DNA of 64,000 nucleotides, from assembly GCA_016219905.1 (NCBI GenBank), contig JACRKA010000351.1:2622-66621 (forward strand). The letters run 5' to 3'. This DNA comes from Verrucomicrobiota bacterium (GTDB lineage Bacteria; Verrucomicrobiota; Verrucomicrobiia; CAIQCK01). Every line of letters begins with the position of its first letter. The stretch's first letter is position 1. Shown piece after piece: positions 31,570-40,800 of the stretch. The notes under the pieces are model-generated. The model saw only the letters and a program-made list of their open reading frames with translations, had not been told where the DNA came from and made no database searches. Made by a program: the position numbers and the translations under genes.

Positions 31570-32016
31570 TCATTCCGACACGCGTTTGATGATCGCCAGC
31601 CATAATGAATCCACCGACCGCACCAGCTTGATCATCTGATTCAAATCAATCGGTTTGCTCAAGTAAGCATCGGCGTTGAGATCGTAAGCTTGCAGGATGT
31701 CCTCTTCCGCCTTCGACCCGGTCAGCACCACCACCGGGATGCGCTTCAGCACGGGGTCTTTCCTCATCTCGATCAACACCTCGCGCCCGTCCTTGCGGGG
31801 CAGGTTCAAATCAAGCATCACCAAGTCCGGCTCCCGCGCTGCCGCATACTTGCCCTCGCGCCGCAGGCAGGCCATCGCCTCGATTCCATCACCCACCACG
31901 GTGAGGCTGTTGTGCAGTTTGGCCTCGCGGAACATCTCTTGCACCAGCCGCGCGTCGCCCGCGCTGTCCTCAACCAATAGAATCTCTATCGGCTTGATCG
32001 CTTTCTTGTCACTCAT
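31570..32016 (-). CDS. Single-domain response regulator receiver protein (CheY-like).
   Basis: Start taken at MSDKKAIKPIEILLVEDS. Phospho-acceptor context VMLDLNLP and conserved LTGSKAEED / K-P region. Confidence 0.8.
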   Translation of the reverse strand: MSDKKAIKPIEILLVEDSAGDARLVQEMFREAKLHNSLTVVGDGIEAMACLRREGKYAAAREPDLVMLDLNLPRKDGREVLIEMRKDPVLKRIPVVVLTGSKAEEDILQAYDLNADAYLSKPIDLNQMIKLVRSVDSLWLAIIKRVSE

Positions 32017-32160
32017 TTGAGCCGCCAGATGATGTTGCACGCACCTGCCGCATTTCCAAATCTTCAATTCATCCTACCGTAATTCAGCCTAAAGACAACT
32101 CTGCAGTTGCGCCGGGTGACCTGCGCCAACCACGCCGCGCACGACTGACGCCGCCACCCT

Positions 32161-33066
32161 CTACTGTGACCCGAACAAACTTACGCCCGCCGGGCTGCGC
32201 CCGCCGCTGGTGTCCACGATCACCTTCCGCGCTTGTGCCAGGCATTGCTCCAGCGTCTCCAGATAAAGCCGGTGCCGCGTCGCCTCCGGCGCGTCCTTGT
32301 ATTTCGCGAACACCTCCCGCACCCGCTGCGCCGCGCCGCTGGCCAGCTCGACCTTCTCCTGCTTGTAGGCCTCCGCGAGCCGCTCCGCGCGATACGCCTC
32401 GCCCTGCGCCCTCGGGATCAAGTCGTTGGCATAACCCTGCGCCTCCTCCACCAGCCGGAAACGGTCGGCCTTCGCGCTGACCACATCGTTGAACGCAGCC
32501 GCCACCTCCGGCGGCGGATACACGCGCTGGATGTTTGCCGAGTTGATGCTGATGCCGCAGCGATACGCATCGGCCAGCTTCGCCAGCCGCTCCTGCACAC
32601 GCTGCTGGATCTCCACGCGCTTCTCGTAGAGCACCTCCTCCACCGGCATCCGCGCCACCACCTCCGTCAGCGCGTTCTTCGCCGCCGCCTTCAGCAAATC
32701 CTCCGGCGCGACGCTGCCGAACAGATAATCATGCGCCGAGGCGATGTTGTATTGCACCACCAGCTCGATGTTCACGATGTTCTTGTCGCCGCTGAGTAAT
32801 TCCACCTCTGCCGGCAACGGCGCCCAGCCCGTCACCTGCCCCGCCAATGCCACGCCCAGCCCCAGCCGTTTCGTCTCGCGCACCTTCAACGGCACCACCA
32901 CATCGCACGGCCACGGCAGCTTCACATGGATGCCGGGCGGCACGCGGTCATCCACGATCCGGCCGAACCGCCCCAGCACGCCCTGCTCGTCGGTCTTGAT
33001 CATATAGACCGACGTGGCCAGCCAGCCGATGACGGCCAGCGCGAATATCCAGCGAACTATTCTCAC
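32161..33066 (-). CDS. SPFH/band-7 domain protein (HflK/HflC family).
   Basis: N-terminal TM anchor followed by an SPFH domain and a coiled-coil tail. Overlaps the upstream SPFH gene by 4 nt. Confidence 0.8.
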   Translation of the reverse strand: MRIVRWIFALAVIGWLATSVYMIKTDEQGVLGRFGRIVDDRVPPGIHVKLPWPCDVVVPLKVRETKRLGLGVALAGQVTGWAPLPAEVELLSGDKNIVNIELVVQYNIASAHDYLFGSVAPEDLLKAAAKNALTEVVARMPVEEVLYEKRVEIQQRVQERLAKLADAYRCGISINSANIQRVYPPPEVAAAFNDVVSAKADRFRLVEEAQGYANDLIPRAQGEAYRAERLAEAYKQEKVELASGAAQRVREVFAKYKDAPEATRHRLYLETLEQCLAQARKVIVDTSGGRSPAGVSLFGSQ

Positions 33067-33953
33067 TTGTTTGCCTTCAACGCCTGCGATCCTTCCGTCA
33101 GCAGCTTCAGGAAATCACTGTCGCTGCCCAGCACCAGCGTCGTGTTCTCCTTCAGCGTCACCCGATACGCATCCAGCGTCCGCAGAAACTTGTAGAACGA
33201 CGGGTCCAGCGCGATGGCCGAGTTGTAAATCTCGATCGCCCTCGCGTCGCCCTCGCCCTTGAGCGTCTCGGCCTTGCGGTTCGCCTCGGCCAGGATCGTC
33301 GTCTTCTGCTTGTCCGCCTCGGCCCGGATCTTCATGCCCTCCTCCTGGCCCTCGGCGCGGAACTGCTTCGCCTCGCGCTGCCGTTCCGCCCGCATCCGCT
33401 CGAACACCGCGTCGCGGTTCTGCGTCGGGAAACCGAGCCGCTTGATCCGCACGTCCACCACCTCGATACCGTAGCGCCCCTTCGCCGTCTCGCTGCACTT
33501 CCCGCGGATCTCCTCCGAAAGCGGGTCGAGCTTCATCTCCTCCGGCTTTATCGAAAGCAACGCCGCCAGCGGCGTCACGCCCAGCTTTGAGCTAAGCTCG
33601 CTCCAGAGCACGTCCCGCAGCCGCATCTCCGCGCCGAGCGGGTCGCGCACCGCCAGCAGGAACTTCTGCGGCTCGGCGATCTTCCACGCCACGAAGCTCT
33701 GCACGACGATGTTCTTCTTGTCCTGCGTCAGGAACTCCGACGGTGTTGCGTCGTAAAGCCGCACGCGCCGGTCGAAGCGCAGCACGCCTTCCCACGGCCA
33801 CTTCAGCCCCAGTCCCGCCGCGTCGAGCGGGCGCACCGGCTTGCCAAACAGCGTCACGATCACGCTCTCGTTCTCGCGCACGGTGAAGAAGCACGTCCAG
33901 ACCGCGGCGACCGCCACGGCCAGCACAAGCAAGGTTTTCGATACAGGTTTCAT
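33063..33953 (-). CDS. SPFH/band-7 domain protein (HflC-like).
   Basis: N-terminal TM anchor, ESVIVTLFGKPV SPFH start, and a coiled-coil C-terminus (ERMRAERQREAKQFRAEGQEEG). Confidence 0.8.
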   Translation of the reverse strand: MKPVSKTLLVLAVAVAAVWTCFFTVRENESVIVTLFGKPVRPLDAAGLGLKWPWEGVLRFDRRVRLYDATPSEFLTQDKKNIVVQSFVAWKIAEPQKFLLAVRDPLGAEMRLRDVLWSELSSKLGVTPLAALLSIKPEEMKLDPLSEEIRGKCSETAKGRYGIEVVDVRIKRLGFPTQNRDAVFERMRAERQREAKQFRAEGQEEGMKIRAEADKQKTTILAEANRKAETLKGEGDARAIEIYNSAIALDPSFYKFLRTLDAYRVTLKENTTLVLGSDSDFLKLLTEGSQALKANK

Positions 33954-33954
33954 G

Positions 33955-36900
33955 TCACTCCTCGGAAATCGTCGGCCGCTGCGCCGTCTGCGCCGGCGCA
34001 GACGGTGCGCTTTGACTCAGCAGCGCCTTCAACCGCTCGTTCAGCAAATAAATCTGGTGCGGCGCCTTTGCGCGGTTGTCCACGACGTAAAGCTGCTGCC
34101 GCGGCAGCAACTCTTCCATCATCTCCAGGTAAAACCGTTCCGCCTGCGCCTCACGCTGTGGGCCGGCCGCCTTGGCCGTCGCTGCGAACCGCGCCGCGCG
34201 GCCATTGCTATCCGCGATTTTCGCGTCCCGTGCCGCCGTCGCCGCCGTCACCGTGTTCGTTGCCGCTCCGCGCGCCAGAGGCACCTGCTCATTGCGGTAG
34301 CCCTCCGCTTCGTTGATGACGCGGCTCTTTTCCTCAATGGCGCTCGCCACGTCGCGATACGCGTCCACCAGCTCGATCGGCGGATGCACGTCCTGCAACC
34401 GCACGGCCTGCACCTCGATCCCTGCCGCGCACGCATCGAGCCGCCGTTGGATGAACTCTCGCACATGCTGCTCGACGAAGGGCCGGCCCGTCGTGAGCAA
34501 TCGCTCCGCTGCCGCGCGTCCCGCCGCCTCGCGCAGCGCCGCCTCGGCCAGCGCCTTCACCAGCGCCGCCGGCTCCGTCGCCGCGAACAGGTAAGCCACC
34601 GGGTCCTTCACCACGAAATGCGTCGTCAGTGTCACCGCCACGAAGTTCTCGTCGCCCGCCACCACCATCGCCTCCTCCGGCACGAACTGGAACCCACCCT
34701 TGTGCTCATAGTTCCATTCGTAGGCCGTCGGTTCAATAAACACATTCGTCTGCGCGGCGGCCGGCTGCGTCCATCGTTTCCAGAACGGCTGCGCCGCGAC
34801 AGCGCGCTCCACCGCGCGCAACCCGACCTGCACACGCTGCACGCGCTCCGGCGTCACGCGGAGCACTTCGTCGCACGGCCACGGCCAGACGTAACTCAGC
34901 CCCGGTTCCAGCACGGCAACCTTTCGGCCAAAATGCAACCGCACGCCGACCTCGTCCGGCTGGATCGCCGTCAAGCCGGTCACAAACCAACTCGCCGTTG
35001 CCGCCACGAGCGCCACGCCCAGCGCTTTCGCCGGTTGGTTGCGACAGAACCCCGCCACCGCATTGCCCTGCCGCCGACATCCCGCCGTCTGCTGCTGCCA
35101 CCACGCCGCGCCGCGCCGCGCCGTCTCGCCGCTCGACAAGAGTCGCAGCGAGTTGCACACCACCAGCAGCGAGGAAATCTGGTGCGTGACCGCCGCGCCG
35201 ATCGGCCCGATCACGCCTTGCGACGCCGCGAACACCGCCGCGCCATTGAAGCCGACGGCGAACCACCAGATGTTGTGCCGGATCGTGCGGATGACCTGCC
35301 GGCAAAACTCGATCGCGAAAGGGATTCTCCTCAAGTCGTCCTGCATCAGCACGACATCAGCCGCCTCGATGGTGATGTCCGTGCCCAACCCGTGCATCGC
35401 CACGCCCGTGTCCGCCGCCGCGAGCGCCGGCGCGTCGTTGATCCCGTCGCCGCACATCAACGTCGCCAGCCCGCGCTGCTGGAGCGCGCGGATGCGCGCG
35501 ACCTTGTCCGCCGGCAGCAAGCCCGCGCCCACCTCGCCGATGCCCACGCGCTCGCCAATGGCGCGCCCGACGCGTTCGTTGTCACCCGTCAGCAGGACAA
35601 TCTGCTCGATGCCACACCCACGCAGCAACGCCACCGTCTCGCGCGCTTCCTCGCGTGGGGGGTCGCTAAGGGCGACCGCGCCGATGACGGTAGCCGCCGA
35701 CGTATGGAGGCGGTCCGCTTTCTTACCAACAGAACTGTTGTCCACCTCCTCACGTCGGTGGCTACCGCGCGCCACCAGCACCACCGTGTGGCCCGCTTCC
35801 TCCAGCCGCTGGATGCGCGCCTCGGCTTCCGCGGAAATCGCCGCGCCCCGCTGCTGCATCAGCTGGCGGTTGCCCACCGCAATGAATGTGGGAGGGGCCT
35901 TAGCGCCCCGACCCGGCGCGTCCCACGCCCCAGGAACGGACTTGGAAGTCCGTTCTACTTCGGAGGCTGTGCTCGAAGTCGTAGAACGGACTTCCAAGTC
36001 CGTTCCATCGTCACGACGAACCTCCGCCACCGTGCCCATGCCCGGCACGGCTTCGAACTTATCCGCCCGCTTCAGCGCAATGCCCCGCCGCTGCGCCTCC
36101 GCCACGATCACCTGCGCCAGCGGATGCTCCGAGTGCGACTCCGCCGTCGCCGCGAGCGCGAGCAACGCGCCCTCATCGCCGCCAAACGCGACCGTCTCGA
36201 CGACGCGCGGTTTGCCGACGGTCAGCGTGCCGGTCTTGTCGAACACAACCGCGCGCGTGTTCGCGAGCTTCTCCAGATAGATGCCGCCCTTGACCAACAC
36301 GCCGGCCCGCGCGAGCCGGCCGATGCCCGCCGCGATGCCCGTCGGCGTCGCCAACACCAGCGCGCACGGACACGCCACGATCAGCACGCTGACGGCCCGG
36401 ATGAGCCGCGCGCTGAAGTCCCCGCCGGAAAAGAAAAACGTCGCAAGGCCCAGCGCGATGACCGTCGGCACGAACCATACCGCCCACTTGTCGGCGCGCT
36501 GATGGACACCCGCCTTTTTCTCCTCCGCCTCCTCGACGAGGTGAATGATCTTGCCGAGCGTGGAATCCTCACCGACGCCAGTGACGCGCACGTCGAGCGA
36601 GCCGACCTGGTTGATGGTGCCTGCGAACACCTTGTCTCCGCCGGCCTTGTTCACCGGGATGCTCTCGCCAGTGATCGCGCTCTGGTCCACCGCCGATGCG
36701 CCCGCGACGACCTCGCCGTCCACCGCAATGCGCTCGCCCGGCCGAACCATAACCACGTCGCCAGCACGGATGTTGTCCAGCGCCACCTCGACGATGTCGC
36801 CGCCGCGCCGGACGCTGGCGGTGCGCGGCACCAGCTTGATGAGCTTCTCGATCGCGCCGCGCGTGCGGTCCACGGCGAGTTCTTCGAGATAGCCGCCGAC

Positions 36901-37176
36901 CAGCATGATAAAGATGACCTCGGCGGCGGCGAAATACTGGCCGATGTAGAGCGCGGCGCACGCGGCGATGGCGATGGCCAAGTCGCTGGAAATCTCGCGG
37001 TGGAGCAGCCCCCATGCGGCCTCGCCGAAGATCTTGTAGCCACCGATCAGCGTGATCAGCACCGCCACATCAAACGGCCCGACATCCTTGATCCAGCCAA
37101 ACCAGTAAAGCGCCAGCAGCCCGCCGACGGCGGCGATGAACAGTGGCTTGCACAGTTTCTTGAGCGACGCTGGCAT
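33955..37176 (-). CDS. Heavy-metal-translocating P1B-type ATPase (CPC type) fused at its C-terminus to an HflK-like SPFH domain. It carries in-frame palindromic insertions.
   Basis: P-type motifs: TGES, CPCAL (metal-binding TM6), DKTGTLT, GDGINDAPAL. The P-type portion ends at NSLRLL. After that the frame continues into a TM segment plus an HflK-like SPFH domain (VRLHFGRKVAVLEPGLSYVWPWP...) of about 370 aa. Total 1073 aa. Confidence 0.8.
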   Translation of the reverse strand: MPASLKKLCKPLFIAAVGGLLALYWFGWIKDVGPFDVAVLITLIGGYKIFGEAAWGLLHREISSDLAIAIAACAALYIGQYFAAAEVIFIMLVGGYLEELAVDRTRGAIEKLIKLVPRTASVRRGGDIVEVALDNIRAGDVVMVRPGERIAVDGEVVAGASAVDQSAITGESIPVNKAGGDKVFAGTINQVGSLDVRVTGVGEDSTLGKIIHLVEEAEEKKAGVHQRADKWAVWFVPTVIALGLATFFFSGGDFSARLIRAVSVLIVACPCALVLATPTGIAAGIGRLARAGVLVKGGIYLEKLANTRAVVFDKTGTLTVGKPRVVETVAFGGDEGALLALAATAESHSEHPLAQVIVAEAQRRGIALKRADKFEAVPGMGTVAEVRRDDGTDLEVRSTTSSTASEVERTSKSVPGAWDAPGRGAKAPPTFIAVGNRQLMQQRGAAISAEAEARIQRLEEAGHTVVLVARGSHRREEVDNSSVGKKADRLHTSAATVIGAVALSDPPREEARETVALLRGCGIEQIVLLTGDNERVGRAIGERVGIGEVGAGLLPADKVARIRALQQRGLATLMCGDGINDAPALAAADTGVAMHGLGTDITIEAADVVLMQDDLRRIPFAIEFCRQVIRTIRHNIWWFAVGFNGAAVFAASQGVIGPIGAAVTHQISSLLVVCNSLRLLSSGETARRGAAWWQQQTAGCRRQGNAVAGFCRNQPAKALGVALVAATASWFVTGLTAIQPDEVGVRLHFGRKVAVLEPGLSYVWPWPCDEVLRVTPERVQRVQVGLRAVERAVAAQPFWKRWTQPAAAQTNVFIEPTAYEWNYEHKGGFQFVPEEAMVVAGDENFVAVTLTTHFVVKDPVAYLFAATEPAALVKALAEAALREAAGRAAAERLLTTGRPFVEQHVREFIQRRLDACAAGIEVQAVRLQDVHPPIELVDAYRDVASAIEEKSRVINEAEGYRNEQVPLARGAATNTVTAATAARDAKIADSNGRAARFAATAKAAGPQREAQAERFYLEMMEELLPRQQLYVVDNRAKAPHQIYLLNERLKALLSQSAPSAPAQTAQRPTISEE
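35689..35766. repeat. In-frame palindromic element (family A) inside the P-type ATPase gene.
   Basis: 78 nt (26 codons). Arms ggtagccgccgacgtatggaggcgg / ccacctcctcacgtcggtggctacc. Encodes SHRREEVDNSSVGKKADRLHTSAATV, placed by eye into the HTVVLVARG...IGAVAL loop of the ATPase; P1B-ATPases are not expected to carry such a segment there. Confidence 0.75.
35893..36007. repeat. In-frame palindromic element (family B) inside the P-type ATPase gene.
   Basis: About 115 nt. It contains two mutually reverse-complementary 22-nt near-palindromes (gaacggacttggaagtccgttc / gaacggacttccaagtccgttc) flanking tacttcgg..cgaagtcgta. Encodes TDLEVRSTTSSTASEVERTSKSVPGAWDAPGRGAKAPP, sitting between VRRDDG and TFIAVGN, which I equate from memory with the VDGRTVLVGN region of other CopA-type pumps. 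Confidence 0.7.
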
Positions 37177-37289
37177 AGTGGACGTGGAGCGCAGTCTATA
37201 TCAGAACGCGGCCCCCGCTGCAAAGTTTCATCCCGCCTTTCCCTGCACGGCGGTTTGACATCGGCGGGGCAGTTCCTATACTCGCGGCC

Positions 37290-38261
37290 ATGAAGATCTT
37301 CGTCGTGGGCGGGGCTGGCTACATCGGCAGCATCTGTGTGGAAGAGGTGCTCAACGCCGGCCATCAGGTCACCGTGTTCGACAATCTCTCCGAAGGCCAC
37401 CGCAGCGCGGTGGACCCGCGCGCGGCGTTCGTGCAGGGCGATCTCGCCAATTACGCCGAGATCAGCGCCGCGCTGAAGGCCGCCGTGCCGGAGGCGGTGA
37501 TGCACTTCGCTGCGGCGTCGGTGGTGCCGGAGAGCATGGTCAACCCGTCGAAATATTTTCACAACAACGTCGCCAACGCCATCCACCTGCTCGACGCCAT
37601 CGTCGAGCACGGCATCAAGAAGTTCGTCTTCAGCGGCACCTGTGCCATCTTCGGCACTCCGGAACGCGTGCCGATGACCGAGGACCTGCCGGTTCGGCCC
37701 CTGTCGCCCTACGGTCAAAGCAAGGCAATGGTCGAGCAGATGCTGCGCTGGTATGACCAGATTCACGGCGTCCAATACGTGAGCCTCCGCTACTTCAACG
37801 CCGCCGGCGCGAGTGAGAAGTTCGGCGAACATCATCGCCGCGAGACGCATCTCATCCCCAACGTGCTGGCCGTCGCGCTCGGCACGAAAGACCACGTCGA
37901 GATCTACGGCACCGACTACCTCACGCCCGACGGCACGTGTGTCCGCGACTACATCCACATCATTGATCTCGCCCAGGCCCACATCCTCGCCCTCCAATGC
38001 CGCCAGAGCGCCTGCTTCAACCTCGGCTGCGGCGACGGCTACACGGTGAAGCAGGTCATTGACACCTGCCGCAAGGTCACCGGCCACCCCATCCACGCCA
38101 TCGAACGTCCGCGCCGGCCCGGCGATCCGCCGAAGCTGGTCGCTTCCTCGAAGAAGATTTCCTCCGAACTGGGATGGAAGCCGCGCTTCAACAAGCTCCA
38201 AGACATCGTCGCCAGCGCATGGGCGTGGCACAAGACGCACCTCAACGGGTATCCGGACTAG
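37290..38261 (+). CDS. galE: UDP-glucose 4-epimerase.
   Basis: N-terminal GGAGYIGS Rossmann motif, YxxxK (YGQSKAM) catalytic pair, 323 aa. Confidence 0.9.
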   Translation: MKIFVVGGAGYIGSICVEEVLNAGHQVTVFDNLSEGHRSAVDPRAAFVQGDLANYAEISAALKAAVPEAVMHFAAASVVPESMVNPSKYFHNNVANAIHLLDAIVEHGIKKFVFSGTCAIFGTPERVPMTEDLPVRPLSPYGQSKAMVEQMLRWYDQIHGVQYVSLRYFNAAGASEKFGEHHRRETHLIPNVLAVALGTKDHVEIYGTDYLTPDGTCVRDYIHIIDLAQAHILALQCRQSACFNLGCGDGYTVKQVIDTCRKVTGHPIHAIERPRRPGDPPKLVASSKKISSELGWKPRFNKLQDIVASAWAWHKTHLNGYPD

Positions 38262-38364: not shown

Positions 38365-40800
38365 TCATTCGAGCTTCGGCCCCTCGATCCGCTCGCCGCG
38401 CTGCTGGCGGGCCTGGTCGGCGACATCGAACGTGCCGTAGAACAGCGCGTTCGCATCCATCCACGTCACCAGCCGCTCCATATCCTCCGCGGTGAGCGCC
38501 ACGTCGTGGTGACCTTTCATCAGCATCTTCATCAACGGGCTGCCGCGCGCGCCGAAAAAGTCCGGCTGCGACATCGGCTCGCTGTTCACGACGCGGAAGT
38601 CGCCCGGCTTGCCACCCCACGCCGAGAACGACACGCGTCCGGCCAGCGCGTTGTAGGAGGCGCTGTAGCGGCCTTGCGGTTCGCCCGTCAGCGCAAGCTT
38701 GCCCTCCGGCTGCGGCCCGCTGTGGCAGGAGACGCAATGTTTGTTGAGCACGGGCTGGACGAGGATGGGATAACTCAACGGCTTCGAGCCGTCGGGGCCG
38801 GGCGCAATCGTCGAAGGCGGCCGTGACATGGCGATGGCGACGCGGCGTGAAGATGGAGTGTTGGCACGGTGCTCGTGGCAGCCGACACAAGAAACGCGCT
38901 CGCCCGGCTGGAGATAGGTGACGCTGCGCATCGTTTGCACCGCCTGGCCGCGCTCGTCGAGCGCCTGGAACGCGAGCGCGATATTGGCCGGCGCGCGGAA
39001 ATACGCCGAGCCATCCGCCTCGACAGGCACCGTGCCGAGCACTTGCTTGCCGGGCGAGGCATTCGCAACACCAACCGTCGGCGCGTTGATGTGCGGTGTC
39101 GTCTTGGGCAGCACCTGGATGACGCGCAGACGCGTGATGCGAGCATCCGGCAGCCGCGGCCATGAATCGTGAACATTTTCAACAAAGAAGGTGCCGTCGC
39201 GCGATGCGGCATCCTTGATGCGCGATTCGGATTCTTGTGCAAGCAACGGCAACGCCGGCGGCGTCGGACGCGCCCGCAGCGGCATCGGCCAGAGGCTGCA
39301 GATTTCCGAGTCGCGATAAAGCAGTTCCTTGTTGCCGAACGCATCCACGAGGTAGAGGCCGAACATGTTCGCCGGATTGGCGCTCGGCTCGCCGATCAGC
39401 GGGTCGAAACTGTAGGCGGCCAGAAAATACTTCTCCGACAACGGCCACGGCGTGCGATAGCAGTGGCCCGGCCACCGCGCCGCCTCCGGCGGAACAACTG
39501 GCGGGTTCTTCGGGCTGCCCGGCGCGCGCCAGAACGCCGGTTTCGCCGTGCCGTGCGACACGGGCTCCTCGCTCTCGGGAAACAGCGCGTCCGGCGTCAG
39601 CCGCGTGATTGGTTCCAGACCGTCCACCCCGCGCGTCACATCAAGCAGAATGATCGAGCCGGCGGTCATCGCATGGTGCGCCGCAGCGGTGGCCATCACG
39701 CGGCTCGACGCCGGCACGGCGCGGGCTTCCCACACGCCGACCGGGTTCAACGTGTTGTTGCCGTAGAACGCACGCACATCCGTGCCGTCCGGCCGCACCG
39801 TCCAGAGTTGCTGGTAATGCACTGCGTTGCGGTCCACGTAATCCCAACGCGTGTAGATGACACGGCCATCGTTGAGGACCGACGGGTCCCATTCGTGCGT
39901 CTCGTGAAACGAGACCGGATGCGGGTCGGAGCCGTCGCCGTTCGCGACAGCCAGCGTGTAGGTCGCGCACGGCCCGCGCCCGCAGCGATGGAACCCGCCG
40001 CGCCGCGTCGAGATGAAAACAATGCGGCCATCGGGCAAACAGCGTGACGCAAAATCGTCGAACGGCCCGTCTGTGAGCTGGCGCAGCCGCGAACCGTCTG
40101 CCGCCATCTCGTAGAGATGGTAATACCGGTCCAGACACGCCTCGCGATCCTTCGGCGCGGTCGGGGCGTTACAGTAGGCGAACAGGATGCGTTTGCCGTC
40201 GTAGGACACCTCCGGGAACTGGAAACTGCCGGGCGGCAGCGCATCCGGCGCAAGCTGGCGGCACCGCATCGTCCTGCCCGGCTCGTCGAGCGCGAACACC
40301 CCGCCGCCCGGCCGCGCGCAACTGCCGTAGTATTGCGTGAGCTGGTGGCTGAACATGCTCGGCACCTGCTTCACGAAAACCAGCGGCCCCGTTTTCGCGA
40401 GCGGATTGGCAAACACGATCTCGCGCCGCAACTCATGCGCCCGCCGCCAGAGGCTTTCCAAAGCAGGAGAATCCGCCATCGTAGGCGCCGACGTAAGGAG
40501 GCGAACGTCATGTGTTGAGCCGGAACGTTTCGCCTCCTCACGTCGGCGCCTACCGAACTCCCCGCGCAGCTTCTCCCATTGCCGCTGCAAATCTCCCAAC
40601 TCCACGCCCGCCGCCCCCAGATCGCTAATCAGCGCATCACCACGCTTGAAGAGCTTGGCGACCGCGTCCACGTAGGTGCCGGGATTACGCGCCGTGCCGA
40701 TGCCATCCTGTTTGCGCCAGTCGGCTTCAATCATCGCGCGCTCGTCCGCCCCAAGCACGCTCGTGACTGCCATGAAGAATGACAATGCAAATCGCCGCAT
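38365..40800 (-). CDS. Exported protein with a TolB-like beta-propeller region and two C-terminal CxxCH (putative c-type haem) motifs. It carries an in-frame palindromic insertion.
   Basis: Signal peptide MRRFALSFFMAVTSVLGA. Repeated DG.(R/I).F.S propeller-like units. CVGCHEH and CVSCHSG motifs near the C-terminus. Confidence 0.65.
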   Translation of the reverse strand: MRRFALSFFMAVTSVLGADERAMIEADWRKQDGIGTARNPGTYVDAVAKLFKRGDALISDLGAAGVELGDLQRQWEKLRGEFGRRRREEAKRSGSTHDVRLLTSAPTMADSPALESLWRRAHELRREIVFANPLAKTGPLVFVKQVPSMFSHQLTQYYGSCARPGGGVFALDEPGRTMRCRQLAPDALPPGSFQFPEVSYDGKRILFAYCNAPTAPKDREACLDRYYHLYEMAADGSRLRQLTDGPFDDFASRCLPDGRIVFISTRRGGFHRCGRGPCATYTLAVANGDGSDPHPVSFHETHEWDPSVLNDGRVIYTRWDYVDRNAVHYQQLWTVRPDGTDVRAFYGNNTLNPVGVWEARAVPASSRVMATAAAHHAMTAGSIILLDVTRGVDGLEPITRLTPDALFPESEEPVSHGTAKPAFWRAPGSPKNPPVVPPEAARWPGHCYRTPWPLSEKYFLAAYSFDPLIGEPSANPANMFGLYLVDAFGNKELLYRDSEICSLWPMPLRARPTPPALPLLAQESESRIKDAASRDGTFFVENVHDSWPRLPDARITRLRVIQVLPKTTPHINAPTVGVANASPGKQVLGTVPVEADGSAYFRAPANIALAFQALDERGQAVQTMRSVTYLQPGERVSCVGCHEHRANTPSSRRVAIAMSRPPSTIAPGPDGSKPLSYPILVQPVLNKHCVSCHSGPQPEGKLALTGEPQGRYSASYNALAGRVSFSAWGGKPGDFRVVNSEPMSQPDFFGARGSPLMKMLMKGHHDVALTAEDMERLVTWMDANALFYGTFDVADQARQQRGERIEGPKLE
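40481..40553. repeat. In-frame palindromic element (family A), copy 2, inside the exported-protein gene.
   Basis: Arms gtaggcgccgacgtaaggaggcgaacg / cgtttcgcctcctcacgtcggcgcctac share the core CCGACGT..GGAGGCG / CGCCTCCTCACGTCGG with the copy in the ATPase. Encodes about RRRREEAKRSGSTHDVRLLTSAPT. Confidence 0.75.

Follow-up and report, generated by a model that had tools for sequence, protein, structure and literature searches.

The question raised by a 64,000-nucleotide stretch of a Verrucomicrobiota bacterium (GenBank assembly GCA_016219905.1, contig JACRKA010000351.1, positions 2,622 to 66,621; hereafter the window) is why a metal pump should be continuous with a subunit of an SPFH membrane scaffold. 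The gene concerned, at 33955..37176 on the reverse strand (as are all features of the module described below), starts with ATG and encodes a 1073-residue protein, a P1B-type ATPase followed by an HflK-like part that we call HflK'. An earlier note on this DNA had claimed that no stop codon separates the pump from the SPFH domain, and translation, Pfam and NCBIfam bear this out exactly: Pfam places E1-E2_ATPase at residues 114-290, HAD at 308-589 and Band_7 at 738-959, and a Pfam scan of the protein found no HMA domain. The rest of that description, a Cys-Pro-Cys (CPC) pump without HMA domain ending in NSLRLL, then a transmembrane (TM) segment and an HflK-like SPFH domain with a coiled coil, is confirmed by the same tools and by AlphaFold2 (AF2) modelling, and the two overlapping SPFH genes downstream are indeed an HflC/HflK pair, as their TIGR01932 and TIGR01933 scores show. 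The exact protein is deposited as MBI5397316.1, from a Verrucomicrobiota metagenome-assembled genome (MAG), and is labelled only "FtsH protease activity modulator HflK".

Such a gene could be created on paper by a missed stop or a frameshift around 35.0-35.1 kb that merges separate pump and hflK genes. The window comes from a single MAG contig, and the sole independent near-identical sequence, a JGI fragment of 215 residues, matches residues 1-215 only, so that it confirms the start codon and not the junction. We therefore looked to relatives. A search over 5.8 billion proteins gave 120 listed matches, all of which carry PF00122, PF00702 and PF01145, with 38-72% identity to the window protein; they are about 1000 residues long nearly throughout, apart from a few shorter partial sequences (for example P0013 and P0014), and come from Verrucomicrobia, Planctomycetes, Blastocatellia, Sumerlaeota and unclassified MAGs. 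A profile of the junction itself (pump TM5-6, linker, TM9 and the first half of SPFH), searched against 1.84 billion cluster representatives at 50% identity, retrieved 207 representatives at E<=1e-30. Among the 150 best of these 207, the majority run from pump TM5-6 into the SPFH domain. Scanning one genome per species yielded 25 junction-spanning loci, in Verrucomicrobiota, Planctomycetota, Acidobacteriota (Bryobacteraceae, Solibacter), Sumerlaeota, Abditibacteriota and Armatimonadota. The fusion, which the earlier note had proposed to seek in related genomes, thus recurs widely: many studies, covering six phyla, contributed more than 120 independent assemblies that show the same uninterrupted ORF (open reading frame), with linker and TM9 conserved; no stop or frameshift was found in the relatives, and none of them was seen with pump and hflK' as separate genes. 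This recurrence effectively refutes a sequencing or assembly error at the junction, to which we give practically no credence. The fusion is a conserved family and no assembly artefact.

The pump half occupies residues 1-680 (35137..37176) and comprises eight TM helices (MA, MB and M1-M6) with A, P and N domains, and no N-terminal HMA. Eight helices before residue 680, the number proper to P1B pumps, are found both by hydropathy and by AF2. The NCBIfam model of P1B heavy-metal ATPases, TIGR01525, matches residues 65-679 with 561.8 bits for a cutoff of 346.25, and the native end of the pump, NSLRLL, lies at residues 675-680. Conservation figures for the pump fusions, here and below, come from an alignment of 117 full-length members. 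In this alignment the catalytic motifs TGE (residues 169-171, 36664-36672), DKTGT (residues 313-317, 36226-36240) and GDGxNDxP (GDGINDAP in the window protein, residues 576-583, 35428-35451) are kept at 96-100%. The best Foldseek matches of the pump are CopA, ZntA and CoaT, with target-normalised TM-scores of 0.71-0.81. The lack of HMA is general, as PF00403 was not found in any of the 120 family matches listed.

As for the metal site, the Cys-Pro-Cys of TM4 (residues 269-271, 36364..36372) is invariant in 117/117 members, and the TM5-TM6 signature (35170..35247) consists of N644, 20 further residues and then H665-Q666-I-S-S. N644, H665 and Q666 are invariant in the family, x-Ser-Ser following the His-Gln pair. 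H665-Q666-x-S-S aligns with H-E-G-S-T of the P1B-4 pump sCoaT, the best match for TM5-6 (49.8 bits), while N644 aligns with the Asn of the CopA YN motif, and H-Q occupies the A-M position in the alignment with CopA. The P1B-4 signature (SPC in TM4, HEG[ST]T in TM6) is replaced by CPC and H-Q-x-S-S; of the P1B-1 Cu+ signature (YN in TM5, MxxSS in TM6) the pump has F-N in TM5 and no Met in TM6; and no K...DxG is present in the pump, a TM5 Lys with a TM6 DxG being the signature of P1B-2 Zn2+ pumps. There is a resemblance between N644-X20-H665-Q666-x-S-S and the P1B-6/CtpC-like pattern N-X18-H-N-X-(S/T) (PMC13460109), with a different spacing and Q in place of N, the comparison being with the published pattern and not with the CtpC sequence. 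The subgroup motifs other than that of the P1B-2 pumps were drawn from a 2026 review. Read through these motifs, the metal site of the pump is a hybrid that matches no classical Cu+, Zn2+ or Co2+ signature.

Between pump and scaffold lies a linker, residues 681-714 (35035..35136), which AF2 models as a helix from 683 to 713; for the family as a whole, the medians for this stretch ahead of TM9 are about 41 residues in length and +5 in net charge. The linker leads to a ninth TM helix, residues 715-732 (34981..35034), which corresponds to the N-terminal anchor of HflK in the membrane and occurs in each of the 117 members. The HflK' module proper, residues 733-1073 (33958..34980), contains SPFH1, SPFH2, a coiled-coil helix of 70 residues (934-1003), a second helix (1005-1026) and C-terminal beta strands. 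The last 370 residues of the fusion align with E. coli HflK from residue 79, in its TM anchor, to residue 360 (97.8 bits). In the AF2 model (mean pLDDT 82, pTM 0.63), the pump, linker helix, TM9, both SPFH subdomains, coiled coil and C-terminal strands are all recognizable. The arrangement of HflK, that is, a single N-in TM anchor followed by periplasmic SPFH, coiled coil and strands, is therefore found again, as judged from linker charge, alignment and AF2, and HflK' keeps all the elements that HflK uses for cage building. Because eight TM helices are followed by a basic linker and TM9, the positive-inside rule gives a predicted topology that shows the pump ending in the cytoplasm after TM6 and the SPFH part lying in the periplasm, as in HflK. 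Some linkers in a subclade of the pump fusions are rich in His (for example ...WWRHLVHDYLHHVWEAHKK...): 12/117 members have 4 His or more there, up to 10, and such a linker may be a cytoplasmic metal-sensing segment. The window linker (columns of residues 681-716) has two Cys (C-x11-C), which are not conserved.

One feature sets the fused HflK' apart. SPFH1 harbors an insertion specific to the fused clade, at residues 788-834 (34675..34815), with the motif EPxAYEWNxQHRxGRY at 34687-34734. Its median length is 43 residues in HflK', versus 6 in E. coli HflK and 22 in the free HflK of the same operons, and the most conserved positions are W821 (100%), Y819 (95%), H825 (91%) and G828 (90%); AF2 confidence is low in this region. 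The insertion starts right after the equivalent of E. coli HflK residue 143, beside the FtsH-contact residues R141 and E142. We considered these contact residues as a means to discriminate HflK' from free HflK, and rejected them, both proteins diverging from E. coli at R141/E142. In these phyla, the E. coli contact positions R141, E142 and R185 are conserved in neither the fused nor the free HflK, and for this reason no conclusion about FtsH is drawn from them.

The fusion gene is the first of three. The hflC partner (33063..33953, 296 residues) scores 194 bits with TIGR01932 for a cutoff of 134, and its ATG lies 1 nt past the TGA stop of the fusion on the coding strand. The free hflK paralogue (32161..33066, 301 residues; TIGR01933, 229.2 bits for a cutoff of 159.4) starts with a GTG that shares 4 nt with the hflC stop (GTGA). 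Given this 1-nt gap and this 4-nt overlap, the three genes are translationally coupled. To see how far the arrangement is kept, ORFs of 29 loci (28 distinct contigs) were classified with the window's own proteins as queries, 27 loci being informative. HflC, the adjacent partner expected of an HflK, is directly 3' of the fusion in 27/27, and a free HflK follows HflC in 25/27, the exceptions being L001/L007 and L014. All-against-all clustering of the flanking ORFs (about 6 kb, 29 loci) brought out no recurrent FtsH, regulator or metallochaperone.

It did bring out a fourth family, present in 20/29 loci: proteins of about 150 residues with an N-terminal membrane anchor and the motifs YLDCF...DRNExQ...W[KR]I...PYGT, whose only family match is a weak, sub-threshold one to DUF3828. 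The gene lies after hflK or, in Verrucomicrobia, divergently upstream of the module (L001 7445-7942(-), L002 13105-13557, L003 13020-13451, and 17 more loci). In some loci the module is adjoined by large secreted DUF3604-like proteins of 850-1035 residues, several of which have DUF3604 and/or beta-propeller matches: L001 4165-6906(-), L003 4180-6750, L004 9127-12231 and 976-3690(-), L005, L017 9251-11848 and L019 1210-4122. These neighbors occur in Verrucomicrobia, Blastocatellia, Abditibacteriaceae and one unclassified lineage, and may be periplasmic clients of the module.

A second, independent fusion gives the strongest argument on function. Some matches to the junction profile, about 550-610 residues long, hit its SPFH part only, and consist of a Cation_efflux (CDF) membrane domain, a linker, a TM helix and HflK'. 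This CDF::HflK' family counts at least 120 proteins; all 120 matches listed have PF01545 and PF01145, and they come from Eisenbacteria, Chloroflexi, Actinobacteria and others. In 5/5 loci examined, CDF::HflK' is followed by HflC and then HflK. The transport site, HxxxD in TM2 and HxxxD in TM5, is 98-99% conserved, a pattern typical of Zn2+-type CDFs, and Cation_efflux spans only residues 9-197 or so, the usual cytoplasmic C-terminal domain being lost. In a neighbor-joining tree (without bootstrap values), ATPase-fused HflK', CDF-fused HflK' and free HflK are each monophyletic, and the two fused groups unite in a single clade, outside of which free HflK and E. coli HflK fall. Both share the core of the SPFH insertion, W-x3-H-x2-G-x-Y. 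That two unrelated exporters are joined to one HflK' lineage, with the same partners, suggests that the link between metal export and the HflK' SPFH system is functional and not accidental. In two CDF::HflK' loci, from Chloroflexi and Actinobacteria, a PpiC-type rotamase of about 500 residues (PrsA/SurA-like) lies directly upstream (L150 1263-2753 and L151 591-2153), and in the second an HtrA-type protease (Trypsin and PDZ) lies downstream of the module (L151 5973-7193), which hints at a context of envelope protein quality control.

The sister fusion also bears on the substrate. Because the invariant His-Gln of TM6 sits where P1B-4 pumps have His-Glu, and because the CDF fusion has HxxxD/HxxxD, the ATPase is probably an exporter of a divalent transition metal such as Zn2+, Co2+ or Cd2+, and not of Cu+.

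How, then, could pump and scaffold work together? The reading that we prefer, with a probability of about 0.55, is that of a dedicated HflK'/HflC/HflK assembly having a divalent-metal exporter as a covalent subunit, the pump being tethered and clustered in its own membrane patch. HflK' carries on its cytoplasmic N-terminus a complete metal-export pump, predicted to be catalytically competent, and a basic helical linker of 30-40 residues leads into TM9, which replaces HflK's own membrane anchor. On the periplasmic side, HflK' would pair with the coupled HflC, and usually with the free HflK too, to build a ring or cage of mixed subunits, so that only a few nanometres would separate the tethered pumps from the ring wall. 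Such tethering would cluster and stabilize the pumps in a private patch of membrane, in effect a genetically hard-wired platform for metal efflux. From our own geometric reasoning, the free HflK may serve to dilute the bulky pump-bearing subunits of the ring. We infer the co-assembly of HflK', HflC and HflK, as well as any involvement of FtsH and the metal specificity. The earlier note had suggested that the efflux pump might be confined to a microdomain or subject to quality control; either idea is compatible with all our findings, and synteny across phyla and the CDF-HflK' fusion strengthen the suggestion. It stays a hypothesis, no FtsH gene being linked to the module in the window or recurring in the flanks of the loci.

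Several observations weigh against this reading. A hidden Markov model built from the fourth family found no member anywhere in the 64-kb window, and accessory genes differ among loci. Every family member found derives from a MAG or a metagenome. HflK' exceeds the cutoff of TIGR01933, the HflK model, by a narrow margin only (162.0 bits for a cutoff of 159.4, residues 737-1034). If every HflK position of an E. coli-like 24-mer bore a pump, the cytoplasmic headpieces would be packed, according to our own geometric estimate. On the choice of metal, specificity is drawn from motif analogy alone: an attempt to assign the pump to a known subgroup through solved structures failed, the whole ATPase being about equidistant from CoaT, CopA and ZntA, and CPC in TM4 is typical of Cu+ and of Zn2+ pumps alike.

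Other functions can be envisaged for the same architecture. HflK' might be an adaptor that places the pump beside or inside an FtsH-containing HflK/C cage, where FtsH would degrade the pump, or where the pump would be shielded from FtsH, its abundance tracking metal status. By score, each of the three SPFH proteins counts as an equivalog of HflK or HflC, a family defined by FtsH modulation, and the HflK' insertion begins beside the FtsH-contact positions R141/E142; moreover, E. coli FtsH binds the cage through HflK only, and a P-type ATPase, MgtA, is listed among FtsH substrates (PMC13220708). However, there is no ftsH in the window and none recurring within about 6 kb of the module in the 29 loci, the contact residues are uninformative, as seen above, and a permanent covalent tether would be odd for a substrate degraded conditionally. 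We hold FtsH-coupled turnover to be possible but doubtful; it is compatible with a tethered and clustered pump, and does not exclude it. An SPFH part acting in cis as a periplasmic sensor or autoinhibitor, without any cage, in replacement of the missing terminal domains, would account for the absence of HMA from the ATPase family and of the usual C-terminal domain from the CDF fusions, and other P1B pumps do bear unusual terminal regulatory domains, such as the hemerythrin-like one cited in PMC13460109. But it leaves unexplained the near-obligatory, translationally coupled HflC and HflK, as well as the retained long coiled coil and C-terminal strands, which serve oligomerization in HflK, and we hold it to be very unlikely.

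Metal release and the SPFH cage share one side of the membrane, which leads to a further scenario: pumps enclosed in a closed HflK'/HflC/HflK cage would discharge metal into it, for sequestration or for the loading of clients. The periplasmic insertion, in which Trp, His and Tyr are conserved, is common to two unrelated exporters, and therefore its function may depend on the exported substrate or on a periplasmic partner that both share, and not on one transporter fold. An anchored periplasmic protein of about 150 residues in 20/29 loci, and DUF3604-like secreted proteins abutting the operon in several phyla, would fit with clients. Yet the window and many loci lack these accessory genes; the insertion, modelled with low AF2 confidence, has a single conserved His, which makes a poor metal site by itself; E. 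coli HflK/C cages are reported to open; and, by our own estimate, many headpieces beneath one cage would be sterically difficult. As an account of this module, we find such a metal chamber quite unlikely. In its boldest form, it would make exporter::HflK'-HflC-HflK a new class of membrane compartment: an SPFH cage with exporters as wall subunits, which would fill an enclosed periplasmic space with Zn-like ions, either for sequestration or for the metallation of dedicated clients. This proposal is speculative and, in our opinion, unlikely; if true, the anchored 150-residue protein or the DUF3604-like enzymes would be candidate clients, and this would be the first SPFH cage with a defined covalent cargo and a defined small-molecule content.

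The closest structural relative of the scaffold half is HflK/C-FtsH of E. coli (PDB 7VHP, 7WI3, 9CZ1/2). The order of TM, SPFH1, SPFH2, coiled coils and C-terminal strands is the same, and an adjacent HflC and a second HflK that pass curated equivalog thresholds are found here. In contrast, the cytoplasmic N-terminus of E. coli HflK is a short tail, where HflK' has a 680-residue metal pump and a linker; the gene order is K-C in E. coli, and K'-C-K here, with three SPFH genes; and the 6 residues of E. coli HflK at the insertion site correspond to about 43 (median) in HflK', with the conserved aromatic/His motif.

The closest functional analogue is the PacL-Ctp 'effluxosome' of Mycobacterium tuberculosis, which, by analogy, provides a precedent for scaffold-dependent P1B pumps: the metal exporter CtpC relies on PacL, a co-encoded single-pass scaffold, for its stability and for membrane foci (PMC9374683, PMC13043812, PMC13460109). 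CtpC has a CPC motif and a His motif in TM6, and exports zinc (PMC9374683, PMC13460109). PacL, however, is a small DUF1490 protein whose functional region is cytoplasmic and whose contact with the N-terminal metal-binding domain of the pump is non-covalent; the CtpC-type pump has such a domain, whereas ours has none. PacL foci are explicitly flotillin-independent, whereas the scaffold here is a genuine SPFH protein, periplasmic and fused to the C-terminus of the pump. No PacL-type DUF1490/DUF6110 protein was found in the gene tables of the loci, where the neighbors are Band_7 proteins.

We know of no P1B-4 pump with an SPFH domain. The best-scoring solved structure for the whole pump is of that subgroup, sCoaT (PDB 7QBZ, 360 bits), and classical HMA domains are lacking in both; it differs by SPC instead of CPC in TM4, by Glu instead of Gln as the second TM6 residue, and by the invariant TM5 Asn that our family has where CopA has the Asn of its YN motif. 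Prokaryotic SPFH operons (stomatin/NfeD; SPFH1-5, Hinderhofer et al. 2009, PMC2636767) are likewise conserved operons with a dedicated membrane partner, but NfeD, which belongs to them, has no part in the module described here. In that survey the words ATPase, transporter and heavy metal are absent, and the single mention of a 'fusion' concerns NfeD joined to a protease (PMC2636767). The suspicion in the earlier note that the architecture was undescribed proved justified, as full-text searches of the literature brought up no description of a P1B- or CDF-HflK' fusion, and the sequences are deposited under generic names; that the module is widespread and that the metal site of the pump is atypical go beyond what the note had seen. 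The component families are well known; what is new is the covalent exporter-HflK' architecture, the K'-C-K operon and the atypical pump site.

The window pump has peculiarities of its own: two lineage-specific insertions in disordered loops of the N-domain, absent from all 116 homologues. Insertion 1 (residues 388-431, 35884-36015) holds a palindromic repeat of about 74 nt at 35933-36006, a perfect 26-nt inverted repeat, in frame, whose arms are each palindromic and lie 22 nt apart; AF2 pLDDT is below 50 there. The repeat is single copy in the 64-kb window, but 119 metagenome contigs carry the 23-nt arm; the ends are conserved there while the center varies, and in 102/132 instances a second conserved end unit occurs about 24 nt downstream of the arm, across the variable center. 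This pattern marks a dispersed REP/MITE-like element of about 74 nt, inserted into the coding sequence without breaking the frame. Insertion 2, of 23 residues (SHRREEVDNSSVGKKADRLHTSA; residues 472-494, 35695-35763), also in the N-domain and of low AF2 confidence, showed no obvious repeat structure. Two metagenome contigs (L104 and L131; JGI, Ga0194112 series) have 80-82% DNA identity to the nuo region of the window (25.1-30.1 kb), and because of this match related Verrucomicrobiota are taken to live in the samples rich in the palindromic repeat.

Around the module, galE is divergent from the fusion gene, with a 113-nt intergenic region, and the other genes of the window are housekeeping ones (nuo genes, 2-oxoacid dehydrogenase E2, a UvrD-like helicase and others); no metal regulator, chaperone or second hflKC pair was found within its 64 kb, nor was ftsH. 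A stand-alone receiver-domain response regulator of 165 residues without output domain (31570-32067(-)) lies 93 nt downstream of hflK on the same strand, and no counterpart recurs in the flanks of the other loci. Upstream, at 38365-40800(-), an 811-residue protein has a hydrazine-synthase-alpha middle domain (PF18582, 86 bits) and a PD40 repeat, with sub-threshold matches near its C-terminus to cytochrome c (PF00034) and Tll0287-like (PF11845). It was considered as a relative of the DUF3604-like neighbors and discarded, being of HZS-alpha/PD40 type (E=0.43 and 0.021 in the comparisons); it is unrelated to the module. An antisense ORF of 1150 residues (33841-37293(+)) covers the whole fusion gene; it has no start-to-stop homology support, and we reject it as a gene, since it results from the high GC content.

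It has long been asked how SPFH cages (HflK/C, prohibitin, stomatin, flotillin) affect the membrane proteins around which they form, and loosely defined clients are largely what has stood in the way of an answer. In the module described here the client is fixed genetically: the exporter is welded to a cage subunit, the partners are adjacent, and this has been done with two unrelated exporter families. It is thus a natural system in which to study stoichiometry, the position of a client inside or outside the cage, and how far the cage alters the stability and activity of a transporter. The current labels, "FtsH protease activity modulator HflK" or "Cu+-exporting ATPase", each conceal half of the protein, and the family flags a P1B subgroup with an uncharacterized CPC/Asn/His-Gln transport site. 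Our analysis suggests that scaffolded efflux platforms, described so far only for mycobacterial PacL/Ctp, are widespread in environmental phyla in a hard-wired form, and that metal exporters can be integral parts of SPFH membrane cages, the gene fusion itself being found in hundreds of environmental bacteria.

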